From Lophium mytilinum (lineage: Eukaryota), in assembly GCA_010093605.1 (NCBI GenBank), contig MU004181.1, positions 2,418,001-2,482,000 on the forward strand: a DNA stretch of 64,000 bases, given 5' to 3'. Every line of letters begins with the position of its first letter. Position 1 is the stretch's first letter. This document shows positions 6,328 through 61,725 of the stretch, piece after piece. The position numbers and the translations under genes were made by a program. Below the pieces are notes generated by a model, which had not been told where the DNA came from, did no database searches, and saw nothing but the letters and a program-made list of their open reading frames with translations.

Positions 6328-8210
6328 ATGGAAGAATACGAGCTTCACCCGCCAGCGCCGCCTGCGATCCCGCCCAGCGCCATGCCCGGCGACCTCATGG
6401 ACCAGCGAAGAGAAGCCTTGCTGAACAAAAAGACGGTCCGCAAGCTTGATCTAATTTTGCTGCCTTTTCTTGCCCTGTTATTCCTGTTCAACTCGCTCGA
6501 CAAGTCCAACGTGAGCCCCACCAGCTGCAGCCTCCAACATAAACTAACAGCTTCAGATTGGAAATGCCGAGTCCGCACATTTCACGTCTGATATAGGGCT
6601 GGATAAGGAGGACATCAATACAGCTGTTGCCCTCTTCTTTGCCTTCTTTGTCAGCCTGCAGCCTCTAGGGGCCGCCCTGGGCCGGAAGTATGGCATGGTA
6701 CGCTGGGTCCCGTCTTGCATGATAATATGGGGTGTTTGTACGGCACTACATGTCTGGGTGCGGTCGAAGTGGCAGCTGTTCATTCTGCGTATCATTATTG
6801 GGGCGTGTGAGGGTATGTAGCTCTCTCCGATCCATGAACAGCTGCTAACGATATTCACCAGCTGGCTTCTATCCTGTGACTGTAGTATATCTATCCGTAT
6901 TCTATACACGATTCGAATTCGCCCGTCGATTGAGCTTGTTCTATGGTCAAGCAGCTGTGGGAGGTGCCCTCGGCGGTATACTCTCTTACCTAGTCTTCTC
7001 CCAATTCGGCGACGAACGGACAAACCAGCCCGACGATACTGGCGACGAAGGTTGGAAATCCTGGCAGGTGCTCTTCCTGCTTGAAGGATGCTCCACGGTT
7101 ATAATCGCCTTCGCTGGCTACTTTTGGCTCCCACACAGTGCCAAGACAGCGTGGTTCTTGACGCCAGAAGAGCGAGAATGGGCAGAACTGCGCATCCAGC
7201 GTGATATTATAGGAGAGACCAGCCACCATTCTAAGGACGACCAAACGGAAGACGACGACGACGACGAAGAGCGCCCCGACACCTCCGGGTCCGAGTCTCA
7301 CGGCCTCCTAAACCCCACCGCTCCGACTTCCACGAAAGTCCTCACAGACGACCGCGGCATATCCCCCCACGACATCCTCTCCGCCCTCACGTGCCCCAAG
7401 ATCTACCACATCCTCATCGTCAACATTCTCTCCGCGATTCCCGCCATGGCCTTCCAAGTCTTCCTCCCTCTCGTGCTCGCCCCATTAACCTCGTCCACCG
7501 ACGACCCAAACGAACCCGGAAAAACAAACCCAGCCCTCACAAACCTCCTGACTGCACCCCCCTACATCTGCGGCGCCATCACCCTCTTCGCCTTCGCCGC
7601 CTACTCCGACCGCCACCGCAAGCGCCTCCCCCCGATCCTCGCCGGTCTCTGCCTCCTCCTCTCCGGCCTCGTCCTCGTGGTCGTGATGCCGCAGACGAAA
7701 GCATGGGCGATCCCGCGCTACCTCTCCCTCAACGTGCTGCTCAGCGGCACCTTCATCGCTAGCCCGCTCACCGTCGCGTGGATTTCCGGGAACACGCCGT
7801 CGCCCGGGAAGCGCGCGGTGCTGCTCGGTATCAACGGCTGGGGAAATCTGGCAGGCGTGTTCTCGGCGCTGCTGTTCAAGCCTAAGTACCAGAAGGAGGG
7901 GTATATCACCCCGTTCTGGTGGACGCTGGTTGCTGTCAGTGTGGCGGCGGCGGGTTATGTCGTTTTCTGGCTGAATCTGCGGAGGGGAAATGAGGCGCGG
8001 ATGGCGCTGGTGAGGAGTTGGGATGCTGATGATGTGGAGGCTGAGCGAAGAGATGGGAGGGGGCCGGTTGGGCGGAAGAGAGGAGTTGCGTTGGGGTTGG
8101 CGAGGTTGCTTGCAGAGGTCAAGGGGTTCGCGGGGTTGGCGGAGTGGGTCGAGAAGGCGAGTGAGGGGAGAGAGGGAGATGAGAGGGTTACGTTTGTTTG
8201 GGGGTATTAG
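6328..8210 (+). CDS. MFS transporter, allantoate permease (Dal5)/anion:cation symporter-like
   Basis: VRKLDLILLPFLALLFLFNSLDKSN|IGNA start motif, YLSVFYTRFEFARR, WQVLFLLEG, AWFLTPEER and many TM helices; introns about 6511-6557 and 6813-6861. Confidence 0.9.
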
Positions 8211-50965: not shown

Positions 50966-53900
50966 TTACGACCCCATCCCACCCCCTTCATCCATCACAT
51001 CTCCCGTCCCCACATGCGGCCCACCAAACCCCCACGCATCGCCCGCGAAAACGCCGTCGTCGCCCAGCGTGGGCGGCTCCATATTGAACGGCATGAACCA
51101 CGCCATGCTCTGGTCGGGAAAGAAGCCGTTCCCCATACCACCCGTATTCGGCATACCCCCGAGATCCAGGTTCCAGAGATCCGGGGCGGCCGAGCCCGCG
51201 AACGCGGAGAGATCGAGCGGAAGGAGCGAGTTGGTCGCCGTGGCGTGGTTCATGAGGCCGATGTTCTGGGCATGTGACTGCGGCGGTTGCGGCTGGCCCG
51301 GGATCTGGGCAAAGGGCGTGGGGAACGACGCGTTGGCGGGGTTGGAGGCGTAGTACGCCGGGTCGAAGTTCTCGACGACGTCGGGCTGGAGGCGCATTTG
51401 GTGGAGGTCTTGTGGCGGGTGTTGGAGGGGCGTGTGCTGGGAAGGTGAGAGCTGGGGTTGGAGCTGAGCGGTGGCGTCGATGGAAGGAAGGTCATCGGTC
51501 TTGGGTTTGGCTTGTTTCTTCTTTTTCGCCATCTTGCGCTGGTGTTCTGCCCGAGATGGTGGCGAGAGGCTTGCGAAGAACTCTTCGACGCTTTGTAGGT
51601 CGGATTTCTGGCCGAGGACGGCGTCAGTGCCCGGCTCTCTCTTGACCTTGGTAGCTGGGTCTTCGTAGTCGGTGTTGGAGACGCCGTGGGGATAGCGGTC
51701 AAACCAGTCGCCGTATTGGAAGATCTGCTCCTGTCCTTTGCTGTTGCCTGCGGCAGGTCCCCGCAAGGCTGCATCGGCGTGCTGCCGATATAAGTCTTTC
51801 AAGTTCTCTGCAATGTAATGAAACATGCCCCAGTACTTCTTCATTTTGGTCAGATACTTGACGTTACTAGCCAAGTATTTCTTCGATTGCTCTTCCAGTT
51901 GTGGGTTTTTGCTGAACACCCCTCGAATGTGAATAGTGCTTGAAAAGAAGGCCGAGTATCCCACAAATGGAGCGACGACGTTGTGGTCCATGGACGCGCT
52001 GATCACAATGGAAACTTGTTCTGCGGCTTCTAAGGCATTACGCGCGGCTTCGGCGAGGAATTCCTGTGGTACTTCGTTCGGAGTATGGGCTCCAGAATCA
52101 GCCAAACGGGAGGTTCTACGCAATTTGGGAATGCTGTCCCCACTCGCGGTAGATGGGCGAGCGAACCGATTCAGGAAAAGAACGCTCTGGTAGTACAGGA
52201 TATGCAGGTATAGCAGCTGGTTTGCAGATCCCTCAATGGCGTGGCTCTTGAGATTCTCCTCGTTATGATGCAGGGTTTCCGGTAACGTTTCCTTGAATTT
52301 CTGAAGTCGGCCCTTGATGCAATTGAAAGTAGATTCGGGATCCCATGTCGGTACCGTCTCCCTTTCTAGCCCGCCAAGATTTAGGTATTTGATCAGCTCG
52401 CCCCATATCGAAACCAAGCGAATCAAATATGCCATGACTCCCATATTGGCCGTCGTGTCCGTCAGCTGCTCCGAATTTGACGTAGAAGCACCACCGTCCA
52501 GATCTTCAGTAGACCCTGCGATTTCATCAATGTACAGTTGCTCTTTAACCGGCAACTGAACCTGGATGAACTGTTCATTAACGAACAGTGGGCGCTCTGT
52601 GCCAGAAGAGTTGAATCGATCCATGAGGAAGCACGACCACATTGTTCTTCTTCTTATTTCTCGATCGATGAAGCTGAGCTTCTTCCTCTCTCCATTCTCG
52701 CCACCTAGTGGGTCGTAATCGAGGTCCCTATGAAGTTGCAAGGCATAGGCCATTCTCTGCGCCATACCTCCGAACATCCAGCTTCGGCCTCCTTGGCACG
52801 TTCCAAACTCATGTAGCCCGAGTAAGAGATACACTATCAGAATCGTAATATTGGGGGCGTCGTATCGTTTGAGGGCTATCTCGCGGGCTTTCGTGGCCCA
52901 CTCTTCGCCTCGAAGAAATGCAGGCTCTGTCCGAAGCTGTGGATGGGTCGAGAATCTTGCGGAAATGGCACATATTGCCAGTGTTAAGACTGGAGGGACG
53001 TTCCCAGCAGCTAGCCTGCGCATAAAGCTGGGTTTGTGAAGAAGAGGGTAGCTCTGGCCGTATACGAAGTCAAAATAGACTTCGGCGAGATGTTCTTGCA
53101 TCTCTTTTGATGGAAGGCTTTCCACTCCCTCGGTAAGTAGCTTGCCTTCCTCCGTAGTCCGTGCTTTTGATGTTGCCGTCGCATTCTCTTCAACTTGCTT
53201 GGAGGCACCCGATTTCGACCAGTCTTCCAGGTCATTCCCAAACGCTTCGTCCGCCGCCCGTTTCTTAGTAGCCGAAGGCTTCGGAACGGTGCCGGGGAGA
53301 GGTGGTTTGACGACTGACCTCCCCATCGGTGGGACAGATCCGGCGTTTTCCTTTGGGATCAGCTTTATCACCCGATCTTCCATTCTTTTAAGTCGTTTGT
53401 CCAGCATGGCCATATAGTCGGTCCTCGGCGCAGCTTTGCGGGTGGTAACTTTGTAGACGCAAGGTATGCGTGATCGCAAACAGTGTCTGCAAGCAGGCTT
53501 CTCTCCAGAGCATCTGATCTTCTTCCTCCGACAGGCGATGCAGGCTAAAGGAAGCCGTTTCCGCTCCTTGCCCGCTTTAGTCTTCATTTCGCTCCATGGC
53601 GGTGGCTCCAGATTGCCGTCCTTGTCCTTTATCGAGCCTTCGCCTCCGTCTCCGCTGACACTGCCATCAGCTCTAGTCCCCATCGAGTCGTTCATTGTCT
53701 CTCCTACTCCCATGACGCTTAGCCCCAGACCACTCTCTGGACTTGTGTTTTGGTCCAAACCATCTCTTTGCTGACTGAAGTCTCCGATGGTGCTAGTGCT
53801 CAGTCGGTGCTGTATGCCAGATGCAACAGAGCCTGGGCCTTCGCTGAAATTCGAGACAGGTGTACGGTGCTGGGTGAAGGAATGGCTCTTCGTCGCCGGG

Positions 53901-54154
53901 GATGGTATTTGGGCCCGGTCATAGGATGTACCGTAAGACTGGTAGTCGCGCGATCCGTTGGCGAAGGCCATATCAGAGTATGTTGGTACCAGGGCAGGGT
54001 TGGGAGGCATGGAGGGCGACTGCGAAGCCGGGTGCGCATTCTCCATGTGTTGATGCCGCATATTGGAGGCAACGTAGCTGTTCAGGCCTAGGGGATCTTC
54101 GGATGATTGGTCTGCGAGGCTGTTATCCGGCAAAGGATGTGAATAGTTCGCCAT
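50966..54154 (-). CDS. Zn(II)2Cys6 transcription factor with fungal-specific TF (middle homology) domain
   Basis: RKRLPLACIACRRKKIRCSGEKPACRHCLRSRIPCVY binuclear cluster; YPLLHKPSF, MAYALQLHRD and EIRRRTMWSCFLMDR; 1062-aa ORF. Confidence 0.95.
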   Translation of the reverse strand: MANYSHPLPDNSLADQSSEDPLGLNSYVASNMRHQHMENAHPASQSPSMPPNPALVPTYSDMAFANGSRDYQSYGTSYDRAQIPSPATKSHSFTQHRTPVSNFSEGPGSVASGIQHRLSTSTIGDFSQQRDGLDQNTSPESGLGLSVMGVGETMNDSMGTRADGSVSGDGGEGSIKDKDGNLEPPPWSEMKTKAGKERKRLPLACIACRRKKIRCSGEKPACRHCLRSRIPCVYKVTTRKAAPRTDYMAMLDKRLKRMEDRVIKLIPKENAGSVPPMGRSVVKPPLPGTVPKPSATKKRAADEAFGNDLEDWSKSGASKQVEENATATSKARTTEEGKLLTEGVESLPSKEMQEHLAEVYFDFVYGQSYPLLHKPSFMRRLAAGNVPPVLTLAICAISARFSTHPQLRTEPAFLRGEEWATKAREIALKRYDAPNITILIVYLLLGLHEFGTCQGGRSWMFGGMAQRMAYALQLHRDLDYDPLGGENGERKKLSFIDREIRRRTMWSCFLMDRFNSSGTERPLFVNEQFIQVQLPVKEQLYIDEIAGSTEDLDGGASTSNSEQLTDTTANMGVMAYLIRLVSIWGELIKYLNLGGLERETVPTWDPESTFNCIKGRLQKFKETLPETLHHNEENLKSHAIEGSANQLLYLHILYYQSVLFLNRFARPSTASGDSIPKLRRTSRLADSGAHTPNEVPQEFLAEAARNALEAAEQVSIVISASMDHNVVAPFVGYSAFFSSTIHIRGVFSKNPQLEEQSKKYLASNVKYLTKMKKYWGMFHYIAENLKDLYRQHADAALRGPAAGNSKGQEQIFQYGDWFDRYPHGVSNTDYEDPATKVKREPGTDAVLGQKSDLQSVEEFFASLSPPSRAEHQRKMAKKKKQAKPKTDDLPSIDATAQLQPQLSPSQHTPLQHPPQDLHQMRLQPDVVENFDPAYYASNPANASFPTPFAQIPGQPQPPQSHAQNIGLMNHATATNSLLPLDLSAFAGSAAPDLWNLDLGGMPNTGGMGNGFFPDQSMAWFMPFNMEPPTLGDDGVFAGDAWGFGGPHVGTGDVMDEGGGMGS

Positions 54155-56014
54155 TGACGTCGCGGGTGAAGGAAGCGCTCACATCCCCACCAATGCTCAG
54201 GACAATTGTTAGTCAACACAAGGGTATAAGTATACGGGTGTTTGGTTGGGAGTGTAGCGTCGCGTAACTGCGCAGATCATGTCGGATGCTGCTCAGTTGC
54301 CAGCATCGCCGTCGATCCGAGCGAAGGGTTTTCCTCCCGCAGTGGCGATGCGCGCGAGCTATACAGCCAAGCCAGCAACGAGTGATGAAAGCAACGTTGG
54401 TGTAATCGGCGGTCCGGAGCAGCCAATGCTTGTCCTGTTATCCGTGTGCCAGGAGGTGTCGAGGCTGAAGAGCGGTCAAGGGGGCGTTCGGACAAGAGGT
54501 CTGTTCGGTGAATGGCGAGGAGGGGCAGCGGGAGAGCTTCGAGGCCGGAAGCTGGCGCGATGGTGCAGGGCGGGTATAGGCAAGTGGACGAGCAGAGAAT
54601 CGAGTGAATGGGCAAAGGGCGAGGTCGGTGTCGGGCGGGCGTGGCGGTGGCAGCGGTGGCATTGGACGCGCGCAGTGGTTTGGACGACACAAAGACCCGC
54701 CGAGGTTCTTCATTCTTAGGTGTGCGTAGCACTGTTCGCGGGCCTGCGTAGCGCTGTTCGACCGGCCAGAACTTGCACCACGGGCGCCGAATTAGTCAGG
54801 CCTGCCCCCGCAAGCTCGTCTCTACCCGCAGCAGCCATCGCGATGCCTGCACGCCCTGGTCGTCCAGGGCTTTGCCGCGTCAACGGCATGGCACAGAGAG
54901 CACCACATGCAGATAGCTTGCGTGAAGGCAGCCACAGTCGCACCATCCACGTTCCCGCCCGAAGCCTCAAAGCGCCCCGCACTGCTTGGAACGTCGACGT
55001 CAGGCCCCGGAGAACTCGCCAACACCAGTGCCTCGCAGACGCAGGCACTGCAGGCACAGCGTACAAATTCGCCGTGAGAACGCCGACACCTTCAGGCGTG
55101 CAATCTGATGAACAAATGACAGCGATGATCGTGTAATGTGCTAACCTGCGGCGCCATCCATCCCGCGTCGGCGACTATGGACGAAGCGCCTTCAGCCATT
55201 TCCCATTCAGCTTGAAGTCCGAAACGGCGTCCCAAGTCTGCAATGACGGTGCTCCATGCTATATGCCAGGGCCCTGGTCGCCCGGTGCGAACCCTATTCG
55301 CCTGCGGCCCGGCCATGACTGCCTCCAATGCGGCCGACCGTTCGCGATCGCCAGAGTTTCATGAACAAGAGCTTGGGTTTCGTGATACGCACGACGTGGG
55401 GGCCGAAGCACGATTAGATTATTAACATGGCAAAGGGATTGGAGATAAGTGCGTGCTCTTCTAGGGAATGACCCTGTTTTGGGCCTGGACGGACCATGTA
55501 CACACTTCACGGTTGCGCCATTCGGTGGTCCCTGTACTGTGCGTGCATTGCAGTCTAGGCGAGTTTGGCCTTCTAGAGTTACGTGGAGTGCATGCATACT
55601 TGATGGCTGCGTCGCGAATGCATTTACACTGTGACACGTCATCATATGATAGCCTGCGAAGGAATCTACTGCCATGTAGCAGACAAACACTGATGAGTAA
55701 CATTACAGACACCTCAAACGTTCAAGGAAACCAGGCTGAGGCTGCATAAGAATCAATTCGTCATTTAACCATATAAACTAGCCCGTTGCAACTGCATACT
55801 CATATATAAAAGAACGACTAGAAGAACGCGCCCACATGTCTCAGCGCCACACCACTACACTACCACAATCAGTTCCCTGCTGCAGTCGTGTGTCTCGTAT
55901 AACCCCCATTTGCGTGGTTGACCTGGTGGCAACACGTCAGCAGTGTTACTGTCTTCGCCAGTGGCCTTGCATATAAGCCTACCGCACCTGTATTACTCAC
56001 GTCTTTGAGGCCTC

Positions 56015-56962
56015 TCAAGAGGCATTATTGCCTACGTTGGCAGCGGCGGCCTCTTCCGCATTCTTGTATGTCTTGTAATCCGAGTAATGAACGTAAGGTC
56101 CGTAGCTGCCGTAGTCCTCCTGAACATGACCATCGCCAGCTTCGTCCCGCTTCTGCTTTTGGGCAGCTTCTTCCGCTGCAGATCGATACGCTCCGTACGA
56201 AGCATACGGCCTGTAGCTGCCATAGTACCCGAATGTTGATTCAGTCTTGGCGTTGTCTGCATTGTTGCGCTTCTGGTTTTGGGCCGTCTCTTCTGCTACA
56301 GATCGGTACGCTCCGTATGAGGCATACGGTCTATAGCTGCCGTAGTAGCCGAATGTTGTTTCAGTTTCGCCCTTGTCTGCAACGTCGCGCTTCTGCTCTT
56401 GAGTGCCTGATTCCGTCTCTGATGCCTCAGTCATAGCAGCGGCCATGCTGCTGCGCTTCTCATTCTGCGCGGCACCATCCATAGCTTTCGAGTAGCTTCC
56501 ATAATATGAGTATGGGCGATAAGTCCCGTAGACGCCAAACGTTGTTTCTGTCTTTTCAGTAGCCACATCACCGCGCTTCTTGCTCTGAACACCGTCTTTC
56601 GCTCCAGCTCGATACGCTCCGTACGAGGCGTACGGCCTGTAGCTGCCGTAGTAGCCGAACGTTGCTTCAGTCTCGGCGTTGTCCGCATCGTTGCGCTTCT
56701 GGGCCTGTTGCGTGGTAGCGTCTTCCGCGGATGAGCTGTAATGATCATAAGACTTGTATATTGCATATGGTCGGTACCCAGTGTAAGTGCCATACGCAGT
56801 GAAGGTAGTCGCCTCTTCTGATCTGGGGATAATACTCCATGCTCGTGAATCAGCTTCCCTTTTCAATGGACTGATGAGACCCCCACTAGCAAGTGGAGCA
56901 GCAATGACGGCTGTCGAGGCACCAATCACCAAGGCGGCGATGAGATCTCGCGTGAGATGCAT
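56015..56962 (-). CDS. Kex2-processed repeat protein / dikaritin RiPP precursor with Tyr-rich cores
   Basis: Signal peptide (MHLTRDLIAALVIGASTAVIA-AP), seven KR sites, 40-aa (120-nt) repeats with acidic leaders; three identical TFGYYGSYRPYASYGAYR cores and three variants. Confidence 0.88.
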   Translation of the reverse strand: MHLTRDLIAALVIGASTAVIAAPLASGGLISPLKREADSRAWSIIPRSEEATTFTAYGTYTGYRPYAIYKSYDHYSSSAEDATTQQAQKRNDADNAETEATFGYYGSYRPYASYGAYRAGAKDGVQSKKRGDVATEKTETTFGVYGTYRPYSYYGSYSKAMDGAAQNEKRSSMAAAMTEASETESGTQEQKRDVADKGETETTFGYYGSYRPYASYGAYRSVAEETAQNQKRNNADNAKTESTFGYYGSYRPYASYGAYRSAAEEAAQKQKRDEAGDGHVQEDYGSYGPYVHYSDYKTYKNAEEAAAANVGNNAS

Positions 56963-58739
56963 GACGAAAGTGGAGGAAGCTGAATTCTCTCAAACGATCT
57001 AAGAGATGAGGTAAGCGAAAGGCCAGAGACTCTGAGGAAGTAATCTGGGTTGGGAGAGCCAATATTTAAATGGAATACACATCTTGTAGTGATAGAATTC
57101 GATAGGGAAGTCGGCGATATGAGCACCGACACTACACAGGTATACAATTGATAACTCCATGATCCCACAGTGTCGTATGATGCTAATCGAGCAAAACTCA
57201 AATTGCAGCTCGCGGATTCTTTACCAGCTTCCAATGATTCCAGTGCTGTCCCACTGTTGAGTAACGCTTGGAGGCACCATCTAGCAATCAAAAGAGACAA
57301 AGTAATACCTCATAATAGACCTGAGATTAGCACGGACGTGGTGAAGTCTGTAGACCGTATTGGATAAATGATTGTGATACTGAGCAAAGACTTGGAATAT
57401 ACGGGAAAGGGTCCGTGGCTATCCTAAGAACCCTTCTTTTTAACTGGCAAAGCACGACAGAGACGTCCAAATTCACGCCACGATAACCAACGTACTAGCG
57501 GGAAGACGTCCCACGGAGCAATTGGCAAAATGCGGTGAAGATGCTGTGCCGCGGAAAATGGCCATGTGTTGAGCCCACAGGCAACGACAGGCGGATTAGG
57601 AAAGTGTCTGTCAACCTATGGTCTAGAATCAAGATACTTGCTGCGAGAACCCGAGTGTCTGTAACGTGTTCCCCATCAGGATGGACGTGTAGTGCTTTTC
57701 TTTGTCGAGAAACAAAGCGGAAGGTTGATGAGGGGGTCCGGCTTAGAGGATCTTGATCGTACCAATCGGATTGGAGATTTTCCGGTCCGGTGGTAGAGCT
57801 AGCTTTGACACCTCCTTCTATGAACCAACCACAAATTCTGAGAGCTCCAAATGTAGCACTGTAAGTCCGTTAGTGGACTCCTGACATCGGGATCCCGCAG
57901 CCATGCACTTGCTGATCCACAAAATCCCAGATGGCATCGCAAAACTCGGGAAGGCCGCGTGATCTTGTCTGCCTCCACTGCATCAGCTGGGACGGAGATC
58001 CCAGCGTGTCCGTGTACTACTACTGCTTGCAAGCGGCCGAACGTTGTCCCTGGCTTTTGTGGTTTTGAAGGTATATCGTAGGTATATCGAAGTACTGTTA
58101 TTAATCAAGAAGTCAGACGTTTCGCAAAGCTTACGGTAAGGTCAAGGAGGTAAGGACCTTAGTGCGCAAACACAAACCCCCCATTCTTTGCCCCGTCCTG
58201 ATTGCTAGGTACTTTCTCCTGGGTTCCGTGAGTCTAGTAACCAGTCAGTTAAGAGCGTCAAACATCTAGTTTAGATTTTGCTGTGACCAGACTGACATCC
58301 AAGGTATTGTTTTGGACAATCTATCAATGCACCACACGCAGTCATCAAGTAAACACAGGAATTGATGATCAGTCACTGCAGCTGGCAAGTTCTGCAAACT
58401 TTAGAGGATAAGAGCGTAAGGATTTGACTAGTTCGAAGTTTTGTACTATTGCACTCTTTGCTGAGTCTAGCAACGACAAACGTCAGCCCACGGAGATGGC
58501 GTTTCACACGGATGCTTGCAGGAGCGGTGAGAAAGTCATCAATTTCAATGAACTGGTGAATGACACTTGCGGTAATCTGTGCAATCGAACTGTTAGTCTT
58601 CTATACTTGCTTCGCTTTGTGCTCAAACATTGTTAGTAAAGCTCAGCAGATGCTTTATTCCTGTCTTTCCATTCATCCAACACAGCCCCACCCTTCACTT
58701 TCTATTTTGTTCTTGATACTCATGCAAGCTTCGACGTGA

Positions 58740-59813
58740 ATGTTCACCATGTTTGGTCCACTTGTAAGAAATTCTACCAAGTTCACACCAGTCTCTCAGG
58801 AAGAAGACCATGAGGCTCTACTACCGTGTCCTTCCTGTAGCGCCTCCTCTGAAATCAAACGATCACCTCGACCCCCCGGAACTTGGTACTTTTTGAAAAC
58901 ATACGCTCCTCTCGTCCTCTTGATATGTGTTTCGGGACTGTTTGGGGTATGGTTGGGCAACAACTGGGTTTTGAGACCCGACAGGTTTTGCATTCGGCAC
59001 ACTTCCCAGTATTGTATGACATACTGAATTTGACGTGGACCAAGAGTTAACATCCAAACATAGCCCCTATAGTCAAGGAAGTCGACCTTTACTATGAAAC
59101 GGTTCGCTTCAACGGCTCTTTGCTGAAAGCCAATATTTTCAGGGGGCCTGCGAGCCCCGAGGTCGATGCAGCATGGGAGTCATTGGGGGTGAATTGTAGG
59201 TATCAAGGCAATGCTTTTGACAGTCAAGATCACTGAACCTATATTCAGACCGCGCCGTGGTAGTTCCAGTAGATCAAGCAACTCAGTCCGGCATCCGTCC
59301 GGATCAAGTGAAAGTCAGTCAGCGCTACGGGGGTGGATTTCCTGCCAATGTGGAAGGTTTGCATCACTTGCACTGCTTGGTGAGTTCTTCTTCAAATTGC
59401 TGGACTATTCGTACTTGAGCCAATGTTAGTCATGTTTTCTAATCATTCCGATACAGAATCTCCTCCGTAAAGCGTTGACATGGAACTACGAATACTACCA
59501 CAAGCAGGGCGAGGGACCGTTCACGAATTCAGACTACGTGATTCGGTATCACGTCACGCACTGTTTGGACGTTCTCCGTCAACAGCTCATGTGCACTGTC
59601 GACGTTGGCGTACTAGGGCAGATCTGGTATCATCCCGAAGGCTATCCAATGGAGCCGTTTGTTGACTTTCACACAAATCACAAATGCCGGAACTTTGAGG
59701 CAGTAAGAGCATGGGCGGAGAAGCATCAGTTGCCTCCCGAAGAGAATGTCGATATGCAGCATTTCTATGAATTGCCGAAAGAGGGAGACAGGATTGTTTC
59801 CGAGATTCCATGA
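58740..59813 (+). CDS. DUF3328/UstYa-family oxidase (fungal RiPP cyclisation/oxidation enzyme)
   Basis: Exons 58740-59013, 59064-59195, 59249-59379 and 59457-59813 give 297 aa with an N-terminal TM helix, YSP, FNGS...FRGPASPEVDAAW, VEGLHHLHCLNLLRK, YHVTHCLDVLRQQLMCTVD and HKCRNFEAVRAWA (two HxxHC motifs). Confidence 0.93.
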
Positions 59814-60071: not shown

Positions 60072-60680
60072 ATGGCTACCACTGCTGCGACCTCGCTTCC
60101 AACACCGTCTCCTCTTACGAAATTCTTCTCTTCCAACCCCACCAGTAACCCCCTCCAAACCCTCGCCCTCCAAATCCAGCACAACCTCACTCACCAACAC
60201 GCCTGGACCGCAATCCGCCTCCACACACACTCTACAATCACAAACACTCCTCTCCCGCGCCCACTACTCTCAGGCCTGCCCCCGCTACGGCTATACACCC
60301 ACCCAGACGAGCAAGTGCAATTGCTGAAAGAGGCGGAAGCGAGGAGGAAAGCCGGGAGGACGAAGCAAGCCGAAAAACACACCGACGCACAAGAGGAGAC
60401 AGACGGAGCAGAGCCGGAAGGACTGGACGTGCAGGCTGAGCCGGAGCGCGAATGGGTATTACCGACGCGGCTGAGCGAGCGGTGGAGCTTGAAGAGGCTG
60501 GCGGAGGTGTTCGATGCGATCGAGCTTAGTCCTCCGCCTGGCGCTGAACACGGCGCAGATGAGGAGGAGGGGAGCAAATGGAGGACGACGAAGAGGGTGG
60601 TGCTCGCGACGGTCGATTCGGATAGCACGGTGGTTTATTATATCGTGCATGATGGGGTTGTGAAACCGAGGCAGAATTGA
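60072..60680 (+). CDS. SEN15: tRNA-splicing endonuclease subunit Sen15
   Basis: IQHNLTHQHAW, RPLLSGLPP..LYTHPDEQ, EREWVLP, WSLKRLAEVFD and KRVVLATVDSDSTVVYYIVHDGVVKPRQN. Confidence 0.88.
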   Translation: MATTAATSLPTPSPLTKFFSSNPTSNPLQTLALQIQHNLTHQHAWTAIRLHTHSTITNTPLPRPLLSGLPPLRLYTHPDEQVQLLKEAEARRKAGRTKQAEKHTDAQEETDGAEPEGLDVQAEPEREWVLPTRLSERWSLKRLAEVFDAIELSPPPGAEHGADEEEGSKWRTTKRVVLATVDSDSTVVYYIVHDGVVKPRQN

Positions 60681-61315
60681 GGAGGTGGAGAGGAAGAGTT
60701 GCACTATAAGGCTATCATGCCTCGGAGGCCACACGGCGCCGCCCCGTTACCGCTCCCTCTTACAACTTTAGGATCGGCCGCAAAGAAAGCATTGCAATGC
60801 ACGCGCTTCTACGGGTGGTAAGGAACACCTATGTGATCTTAGAAATTGGGTGCAGGTGGGCTAGCTGCAGAGCACCTCTGCAAGTAGAGAGGTTGAGGGT
60901 CGTGCCGGGTGCAATAGCTCGCGCTAATTGAGTGGCCCTTGACTGGTGAGAGAAGATGCCAGAGACTAGGCCTTCAAGACCCTGAAGCATACGAGAGCTT
61001 GAGGAAACACCAATCTGAGAAACTACCTCACAATCTAGAACTAAGAGGGTAAGTCCGTTCTTCTTTCAAATATAGGAGGTGGACATCATATCGTAACGTC
61101 ACTGAATCTCTGTCTTTTTAGTGACTACGATTTGATTAAGTCCAGCTCATATACCAGAATCAATACGAGACTCATTCTTCCATCATCGGTCTATTATTAT
61201 GTGAACTTCATTTATCTTACAATGACTCGTCAAAGGAATCTATACACTCGTTCAACGCTGCTGGAGAAGGACTGTAGGAGGTAGTATTCTTAGCGTTCCG
61301 AATGAGAGAGAGGGT

Positions 61316-61725
61316 GGGAGTTGATCTTGGTGTTGGGAGATATGTGAGCCAGAGCCAGCCAGTCCGTGTGGTTTGAAGTTGGGTTTTTGGTGTTATTGGC
61401 GGATCTCTTGAATGAGGCCTGAAAATTTGGGTTGGTCTTGAGGGTGCGAGATGTTTGAAGTGGAGCCAGTCCGTTCGATCTGAAGCTGGTTTTGGCATAC
61501 TATTGGCGAACGCTTGACATCAGGCTTCAGATATGGGGTCAATCTTGAGGGCGCGAGATGTATAAACGGGAGCCAGTCCGTGCGATTTGAAGGTGGTTTT
61601 GGCATATTATTGGTGAACGCTTCAAATCAGGTCTGAGGATTGGAGTTGATCTTGAGGGTGTGAGATGTATAAACGGGAGCTAGTCTATGCGATTCGCAAT
61701 TGTTTTGGGCATGTTATCGACGAGG
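61316..61725. repeat. Diverged tandem repeat, about 4 copies, 107-bp period
   Basis: The AGC(C/T)AGTC anchor recurs at 61357, 61464, 61571 and 61678, with shared TCTTGAGGG.G.GAGATGT, TTTTGGCAT and TATTGG.GAACGCTT blocks. Confidence 0.9.

Follow-up and report, generated by a model that had tools for sequence, protein, structure and literature searches.

A divergent pair of a tyrosine-periodic Kex2-repeat precursor gene and a UstYa oxidase gene in Lophium mytilinum, probably a minimal two-gene ribosomal-peptide module

The DNA considered here is a stretch of 64,000 nucleotides (hereafter the window) of contig MU004181.1, assembly GCA_010093605.1, from Lophium mytilinum, a fungus belonging to the Dothideomycetes, Mytilinidiales. 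At positions 56015 to 59813 it carries two genes lying head-to-head, one encoding a 315-aa precursor protein made of repeated modules separated by Lys-Arg (KR) sites of the Kex2 type and the other an oxidase of the UstYa/DUF3328 family. An earlier note, made from the letters alone, had taken the pair for a dikaritin-type system for a RiPP (a peptide made by the ribosome and modified after its translation), with the two genes about 1.8 kb apart; the start codons are indeed 1,777 bp apart and the genes divergent. The structures of both genes, their splicing, the membership of the oxidase in the UstYa family and the conservation of the divergent pairing are matters of observation, and on these we base the interpretation that the locus is probably a minimal two-gene ribosomal-peptide module in which UstYa would modify the periodic Tyr residues of a Kex2-repeat precursor. 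The parts of the precursor gene, based on KR-delimited segments and module alignment unless otherwise stated, are as follows.

56015..56962, minus strand: precursor coding sequence, a 315-aa open reading frame (ORF) with RNA-derived contig cover
56897..56962, minus strand: likely signal peptide, approximately residues 1-22, ending in ..AVIA before AP (hydropathy and relatives)
56693..56857, minus strand: module 1, 55 aa, with the divergent core ..AYGTYTGYRPYAIYKSYDHY..KR
56573..56692, minus strand: module 2, 40 aa, core TFGYYGSYRPYASYGAYR, ending in KKR
56453..56572, minus strand: module 3, 40 aa, core TFGVYGTYRPYSYYGSY
56387..56452, minus strand: KR-bounded spacer of 22 aa without a Tyr core (KR segments)
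56267..56386, minus strand: module 5, 40 aa, main core (also tandem repeat)
56147..56266, minus strand: module 6, 40 aa, main core (also tandem repeat)
56018..56146, minus strand: C-terminal module, 43 aa, degenerate core DYGSYGPYVHYSDYKTY, without a closing KR

The seven KR sites (residues 34, 89, 129, 169, 191, 231 and 271) divide the precursor into a leader of 35 aa, segments of 55, 40, 40, 22, 40 and 40 aa and a tail of 43 aa, which confirms the modules of about 40 aa described in the earlier note, together with the protein length and the number of KR sites, the coordinates having been exact. The N-terminus is hydrophobic, the top 15-mer of the first 40 residues starting at residue 7 (hydropathy peak 7-21), the ..A(A/V)AP junction is also present in relatives, and we infer from the sequence that the signal peptide would be cleaved between ..AVIA and AP. 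Tyr accounts for 37 of the 315 residues, with 27 Tyr-Tyr pairs at a spacing of three, a number equalled in none of 20,000 shuffles (mean 4.2), and 21 pairs at a spacing of six; seven KR sites were equalled once in 20,000 shuffles of the protein. At the level of DNA, Tandem Repeats Finder reports a 120-nt period at 56143-56401 (2.2 copies, 81% matches), and alignment of the six modules leaves G13, Y15, Y18, Y21, Y24 and Y27 invariant. The precursor thus has what defines a Kex2-processed repeat protein, namely a signal peptide, here judged by hydropathy and relatives, and at least three similar repeats separated by KR. A Pfam search of the precursor returned no family and the exact 315-aa sequence was not found in a collection of 15 billion proteins; it is present in the ESM Atlas, where its model has a mean predicted local distance difference test (pLDDT) score of 0.44, and the protein is predicted to be mostly disordered.

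The oxidase gene lies on the opposite strand and consists of four exons.

58740..59013, plus strand: exon 1, N-terminal tail and membrane anchor, residues ~46-74 (hydropathy, contig joint and NCBI protein P0002)
59064..59195, plus strand: exon 2, PF11807 profile positions 55-90, 26.6 bits, E 6.6e-6 (and contig joint)
59249..59379, plus strand: exon 3, ending in the first HxxHC motif (HHLHC), profile positions 95-137, 30.2 bits (and contig joint)
59457..59813, plus strand: exon 4, second HxxHC motif (HVTHC) and stop codon, profile positions 138-220, 89.5 bits, E 3.6e-25

When joined, the exons give 894 nt encoding 297 aa with no internal stop, and the introns, of 50, 53 and 77 nt, are all GT..AG. 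The four-exon gene with a transmembrane anchor and two HxxHC motifs proposed earlier is therefore borne out by the 297-aa model, by contig joints and by P0002, and the suggested search against PF11807 was likewise positive: exons 2, 3 and 4 are collinear on the profile (55-220) and each exceeds its gathering cut-off of 25 bits. HHLHC begins at residue 174 and HVTHC at residue 211; both are invariant across 30 orthologues, and at least two HxxHC motifs occur in 114 of 120 UstYa matches. The most hydrophobic 19-mer spans residues 55-73, and the AlphaFold2 model of P0002 (whole-model mean pLDDT 78.6) has a helix at residues 46-74 with a pLDDT of ~92, an arrangement in which the catalytic domain would be located in the lumen. 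A search with exon 4 found 129 matching proteins among 167 candidates, the best being P0002 from L. mytilinum itself (294 aa, 100% identical), which carries a precomputed PF11807 assignment and equals residues 4-297 of our model, while orthologues occur in many ascomycetes at 50-69% identity. In public databases most orthologues go by the misleading legacy label 'Tat pathway signal sequence', and one of 419 aa (P0049), perhaps a fused model, is named as a dioxygenase. Structural comparison of the UstYa model gave 0 matches in the PDB at E <= 0.001 (Foldseek) and 0 at Z >= 5 among 48,161 chains (VIA-align), the top rows of the latter covering the membrane helix only (residues 44-87); this absence of matches does not amount to a new fold, and it leaves the type of modification without a structural clue.

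Evidence from RNA comes from the contigs of one public run (X1), the type of which was guessed as RNA and the depths of which do not serve for ranking genes. The contig joints 59013>59064, 59195>59249 and 59378>59456, all GT..AG, correspond to exactly the three introns of the oxidase gene, and because neighbouring genes also show splice-like joints the contigs can be taken to derive from spliced RNA, by which both the precursor and the UstYa genes are covered. In the precursor they bridge two to three introns with GT..AG borders, and they add three features to the locus.

56999..57308, minus strand: 310-nt intron in the 5' untranslated region (UTR) of the precursor (contig joint 56998>57309, CT..AC ends)
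56736..56795, minus strand: optional in-frame 60-nt intron, GTATGG..TTACAG (joint 56735>56796, CT..AC ends)
57716..57974, no strand: gap between the divergent transcripts, a candidate shared promoter (drop in contig cover after 57715, start of the UstYa contig)

The upstream exon of the precursor 5'UTR extends from 57309 to ~57715 according to contig depth bins, the 3'UTR appears in one or two splice forms, and an in-frame stop at 56990-56992 lies upstream of the ATG at 56962, which therefore remains the start of the precursor. Splicing of the 60-nt intron removes exactly residues 57-76, that is the first, divergent Tyr core, and keeps the frame; the spliced form has a depth of 19.9 compared with 40.7 for the unspliced contig, roughly half, and the precursor may exist as two isoforms. 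The UstYa contig begins at 57975, ~765 nt ahead of its ATG. With cover of the precursor dropping after 57715, the apparent starts of the divergent transcripts lie no more than ~260 bp apart, an arrangement suggestive of a bidirectional promoter common to both genes, although contigs cannot fix transcript ends.

Conservation of the linkage looked unfavourable at first when searched for from the precursor only, a word-index search with the whole protein returning 1 match, a weak relative, among 2,145 candidates, as against many orthologues of UstYa. Metagenome contigs were therefore scanned with a 30-sequence UstYa alignment: 551 stretches matched, 230 of them coding for a relative, and the 80 best were retained, which formed 62 non-redundant groups once near-identical loci had been dropped. 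Groups were considered informative if they had at least 2,500 bp upstream (n=23) or downstream (n=19) of the oxidase, and a precursor was called when two or more Y..Y..Y hits fell within 4 kb. By this measure an upstream, divergent precursor signal is present in 20 of the 23 groups, an upstream signal on the same strand in 2/23 and a downstream signal in 0/19. The upstream-divergent compartment holds 182 Y..Y..Y hits in 109.8 kb and the three control compartments 8, 2 and 1, equivalent to rates per kb of 1.66 for the former, 0.07 for the upstream same strand and 0.02 and 0.01 for the downstream strands, and every ORF with Y..Y..Y..Y at these loci lies upstream of the UstYa match on the opposite strand. 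Two of the three misses hold a variant precursor, in locus L045 a single NYGDYGSY exon and in L060 a signal-peptide protein with five GGYKxY repeats. In a named genome, that of Amylocarpus encephaloides, the UstYa orthologue (KAG9232725.1) and the precursor (KAG9232726.1) have consecutive accessions on the same 72,057-bp contig; adjacency in named genomes rests on this case and on a flag in Umemura 2020 that is described below. The conserved linkage that the earlier note had named as a check was thus found. Functional coupling of precursor and oxidase is supported by a divergent pairing so strict that it is hard to explain otherwise.

These data also bear on the reading that the two genes are neighbours by chance, or that the precursor ORF is not a real gene, a reading to which the lack of a Pfam family and of the exact sequence in the 15-billion-protein collection would lend themselves. 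It is contradicted by the spliced RNA-derived contigs over the precursor, by the presence of its sequence in the ESM Atlas, by a KR and Tyr periodicity far beyond that of shuffled sequences, by the existence of homologues and by the conserved linkage, and we rejected it as extremely improbable.

Whether the conserved unit extends beyond the pair can be judged from the flanking ORFs. When those of 90 aa or more were clustered from loci no shorter than 4 kb, with low-complexity filtering, only two sets recurred: UstYa, in 25 groups, and the shadow of UstYa on the antisense strand, in 13 groups; no third recurrent gene was seen beside the UstYa orthologues, every other cluster of flanking ORFs being confined to three groups or fewer. 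The immediate neighbours of the Lophium pair, as identified by the domain scan, are the following.

50966-54178, minus strand: open reading frame of 1,070 aa carrying Zn2Cys6 and fungal transcription-factor domains, next to the precursor
60072-60680: Sen15

Of the 80 loci, only the two closest relatives, L072 and L044, have these neighbours as well. As no other flanking ORF recurs and neighbours are rarely kept, the conserved unit is the pair. The Zn2Cys6 factor was considered as a cluster regulator within the conserved module and rejected, its presence in two close relatives, both of which also retain Sen15, being local synteny and not part of the module. Other genes near the pair are a CCCH zinc-finger gene, GST and MIP fragments, GLTP and GH76, and elsewhere in the window there are ferric-reductase-like, MFS, thioesterase, SDR, actin, kinase, DJ-1 and DEAD-box helicase genes. 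The scan covered 16 + 59 ORFs of at least 110-130 aa, a set from which a gene of many short exons could escape, and among these no second UstYa/DUF3328 gene was found, only one being present. Beyond Sen15, the minus-strand ORFs 61217-61498 and 61393-61605 overlap and start with near-identical peptides, pointing to a short tandem duplication, and RNA-derived contigs over 61047-61605 show alternative joints (61047>61121 and 61047>61235) and loose ends at 61553-61589.

A profile built from the precursor's own modules retrieved 7 proteins among 1.84 billion representatives, all of them either 'hypothetical' proteins of Pleosporales or unnamed. When metagenome modules were included, Y15, Y18, Y21, Y24, G25 and Y27 were invariant in the alignment and the resulting wider profile found 50 proteins at E <= 0.01 among 7,999 scored candidates. 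The family-wide core is consequently Y-x-x-Y-x-x-Y-x-x-Y-G-x-Y, shorter than the 18-residue main core on which the earlier note had settled. All ten of the named relatives inspected have the same architecture, and the named relatives span Dothideomycetes, Leotiomycetes, Geoglossomycetes, Lecanoromycetes, Sordariomycetes and Eurotiomycetes; carriers of the pair include lichen-formers, black yeasts and plant-associated species. The metagenome precursors, many of which are interrupted by introns, carry a signal peptide and modules of the type GYGKYANYGSY-PPPP-GGYGKYANYGTY; KR comes immediately after each module and often leads into EAEA/EPEA (EAEAEPEA-type) spacers, and poly-Pro linkers are found in many relatives. 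In most of them KR comes right after the last Tyr, whereas in the Lophium precursor the core and KR are ~10 spacer residues apart.

Several variations within the family deserve mention. Many relatives possess a conserved tail past the last KR, e.g., KRAVDFIKRLWS, KRAVGDFMRKIFG or KRALGYLVKRLWS (examples are P0135, P0143 and P0159, and L035:6148-6255, L055:5866-5994 and L060:6158-6463), which the Lophium precursor does not have and which may serve for recognition or as a follower peptide. In several relatives the precursor is divided into many short exons, approximately one per module (L029:3-1007, L031:67-830, L025:5075-5859 and L015:5560-6088), and is therefore likely to be missed or mis-modelled by ORF finders and gene callers. 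P0129 from Aureobasidium melanogenum (517 aa), possibly a merged gene model, has an N-terminal Tyr-periodic precursor and ~370 aa of unrelated sequence, and in P0144 from Acephala macrosclerotiorum (211 aa) Tyr-periodic modules flank a Cys-rich domain on both sides.

The KR-EAEA processing sites of the relatives resemble those of alpha-factor, and the precursor might be regarded as an ordinary Kex2-processed repeat protein giving unmodified linear signalling peptides, with UstYa acting elsewhere. Mating factors are linear and 78% of catalogued Kex2-repeat proteins have no DUF3328 neighbour (PMC7329392), and alpha-factor precursors were also returned by an Atlas feature search, with a score of 0.78, below the level at which such a result is more than a mere lead. 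Against this, the divergent pairing has been kept while the neighbours changed (20/23 versus 0/19, with no third recurrent gene), and Tyr is the residue reported to be crosslinked by UstYa enzymes (PMC7329392, PMC6514808). Taken together, these observations make a purely linear product improbable.

The reading that we prefer, and consider likely, is that of the minimal two-gene module. In such a system the precursor would enter the secretory pathway through its signal peptide, the membrane-anchored UstYa, with its catalytic domain luminal, would oxidatively modify the periodic Tyr residues of each core, and Kex2 cleavage after each KR would then yield approximately six modified peptides per precursor molecule for secretion, with a Ste13-type peptidase additionally trimming the EA/EP spacers in many relatives. 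By analogy with asperipin-2a, the likeliest chemistry would be the formation of ether macrocycles from Tyr oxygen to beta-carbon between Tyr residues three positions apart, and the product would accordingly be Tyr-crosslinked. If the second ring of asperipin-2a joins the two Tyr of its Y-T-G-Y unit, successive Tyr of an i/i+3 array could be connected in series, and serial rings may form along the array of five Tyr.

A number of points weigh against this interpretation. Among the window ORFs scanned there is no tyrosinase, no methyltransferase and no peptidase; no reductase adjoins the pair and no transporter either, the only MFS ORF being ~48 kb away at 6849-8207, and neither a reductase nor a transporter recurs beside the orthologues. 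Transcription of both genes is read from contigs of the one run of guessed type; the metagenome loci were picked by motifs specific to one UstYa clade, so that the result covers that clade, and at one informative locus, L020, no precursor was seen. All of the product chemistry is inferred by analogy. The spacer between core and KR in the Lophium precursor makes the released peptide uncertain, and a core of 13 residues with five Tyr is far longer than that of any characterised dikaritin. One UstYa orthologue is auto-named 'cyclochlorotine biosynthesis protein O', and UstYa proteins are also described from non-ribosomal pathways and as acting in hydroxylation, chlorination and transacylation (PMC12048977). 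Finally, toxin clusters do not usually retain 50-69% identity between classes, a level that suits a physiological or structural function just as well.

On an alternative view, the peptides, rich in Tyr, Gly and Pro, would not give rise to a diffusible compound but would be assembled into a material (for instance a wall, spore coat, adhesive or pigment scaffold), UstYa hydroxylating their Tyr or crosslinking it between molecules so that a polymer results. The composition of the family is suited to this, with a Tyr in every third position, a Gly behind Tyr and, in many relatives, linkers of poly-Pro, as are the predicted disorder of the precursor (ESM Atlas pLDDT 0.44), the conservation of the pair at the level of classes together with the high identity of UstYa, the lack of any recurring transporter or self-resistance gene, and P0144, in which the modules are embedded in a protein with a Cys-rich domain. 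The regular KR sites and the Ste13-type EA/EP spacers of relatives point instead to short peptides and not to a long structural chain, the characterised UstYa reactions are described as intramolecular tailoring (PMC12048977, PMC7329392, PMC6514808), and no wall-anchoring signal is evident by eye in the 315-aa precursor; we therefore regard a material of this kind as rather unlikely. Somewhat broader, and put forward here as a tentative possibility, is the proposal that the pair is an ancient module of the Pezizomycotina, the product of which would be either a 'ladder' peptide or a crosslinked Tyr-rich material or developmental factor, as opposed to a small toxin-like macrocycle. In the ladder form, links between each Tyr and its counterpart three positions away would produce a consecutive series of at least four fused cyclophane rings.

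Whichever form the product of the two-gene module takes, the pair is relevant for the study of UstYa/DUF3328 enzymes, which are fungus-specific oxidases with few known substrates: it offers a very simple test system of one enzyme and one precursor without accessory genes, with a strictly periodic and easily mutated substrate motif. If serial Tyr crosslinks are formed, fungal ribosomal peptides would extend from rings of 4-6 residues to multi-ring structures of at least 13 residues, and a ladder peptide or crosslinked material would add a structural class to the fungal ribosomal peptides and assign to UstYa enzymes a role not previously known. A role in the wall, spores or development, if true, would provide a physiological function for a widely conserved gene still called 'Tat pathway signal sequence'.

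With regard to known systems, the layout resembles that of the ustiloxin and phomopsin clusters in having a signal peptide, repeated cores delimited by KR and a DUF3328/UstYa protein with HxxHC motifs (PMC7329392, PMC12048977). UstYa proteins are described as forming Tyr ether bonds in ustiloxin, phomopsin and asperipin-2a (PMC7329392, PMC6514808), Tyr being the crosslinking residue in the classical dikaritins (PMC7329392, PMC12048977). The cores of the latter are Y-x-I-x tetra- to hexapeptides cyclised from Tyr to Ile, and their clusters depend on a tyrosinase and contain 2-5 UstY genes as well as a methyltransferase, a P450/FMO, a peptidase and a transporter; apart from the distant MFS ORF, these accessory genes are absent from the Lophium window ORFs scanned and none recurs beside the UstYa orthologues. 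Of the five genes by which Ding et al. define a dikaritin cluster (quoted in PMC12048977), only the precursor with leader and repeated core is found here; a tyrosinase, a methyltransferase, multiple DUF3328 genes and an adjacent transporter or peptidase are all lacking among the ORFs scanned. The dikaritin layout suggested by the earlier note consequently applies in the wide sense, that of a KR-repeat precursor gene adjoining a DUF3328 gene with conserved linkage, and not in the strict one.

Yeast alpha-factor-type proteins, which are processed by Kex2 and Ste13, also have a signal peptide and KR-separated repeats, and relatives of the precursor add EA/EP spacers to this likeness; in contrast, the spacers of the Lophium precursor are not clean runs of X-Ala/X-Pro dipeptides. 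The locus is closest in its logic to the asperipin-2a cluster of Aspergillus flavus (aprA, aprY, aprT and aprR), AprY being compared by description and not by sequence. The two have in common a Kex2-repeat precursor, a single UstYa, the lack of a tyrosinase and a Tyr-rich core with a Y-x-x-Y unit. They differ in that the asperipin-2a core is a hexapeptide whereas that of Lophium has at least 13 residues, five Tyr and a strict i+3 spacing, and in that there is neither a reductase (aprR) nor a transporter (aprT) beside the Lophium precursor, for which reason it cannot be classed as asperipin-type. According to PMC6514808, asperipin-2a has the core FYYTGY, in which Tyr side chains are joined to beta-carbons by ether bonds; AprY, the only UstYa, is essential, a sequential oxidative macrocyclisation having been proposed.

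As a general kind, DUF3328 genes adjoining a Kex2-repeat precursor gene are already well known. The list of 94 Aspergillus candidates reportedly compiled by Nagano in 2016 may contain relatives of the precursor. Of the 7,878 Kex2-repeat proteins of Umemura 2020, 1,758 have a DUF3328 neighbour (PMC7329392), and Table S2 of that study lists, as type 105 with 'DUF3328 in vicinity', the Pseudogymnoascus proteins KFY36835.1 and KFY51272.1, which fall into P0148's 90% cluster, P0148 being a Tyr-periodic relative retrieved with the module profile. Type 105 has 10 entries, at least 4 of which are from Pseudogymnoascus, and since it shares with the Lophium pair a Tyr-periodic precursor with a DUF3328 neighbour, part of the family has already been publicly catalogued, in the form of accessions and type numbers and, unlike in the present analysis, with no tie to a wider family, a UstYa clade or a product. 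'Lophium' does not occur in the supplementary tables of Umemura 2020, none of the accessions of the Pleosporales relatives appears in its Table S2, and the core motif strings do not occur in the supplements of Umemura 2020 or Le Marquer 2019, Table S2 consisting of accessions without sequences. In the full-text literature searched, from which most subscription journals are missing, no product, core motif or characterised cluster of this kind was found. The earlier claim of a probably uncharacterised product therefore stands as far as characterised clusters are concerned, and is to be qualified by the catalogued Pseudogymnoascus relatives. In comparison with the findable literature, what is new is the tie between one UstYa clade and one strictly Tyr-periodic precursor superfamily, a module made up of two genes only, and a pairing of the two that persists across six classes.

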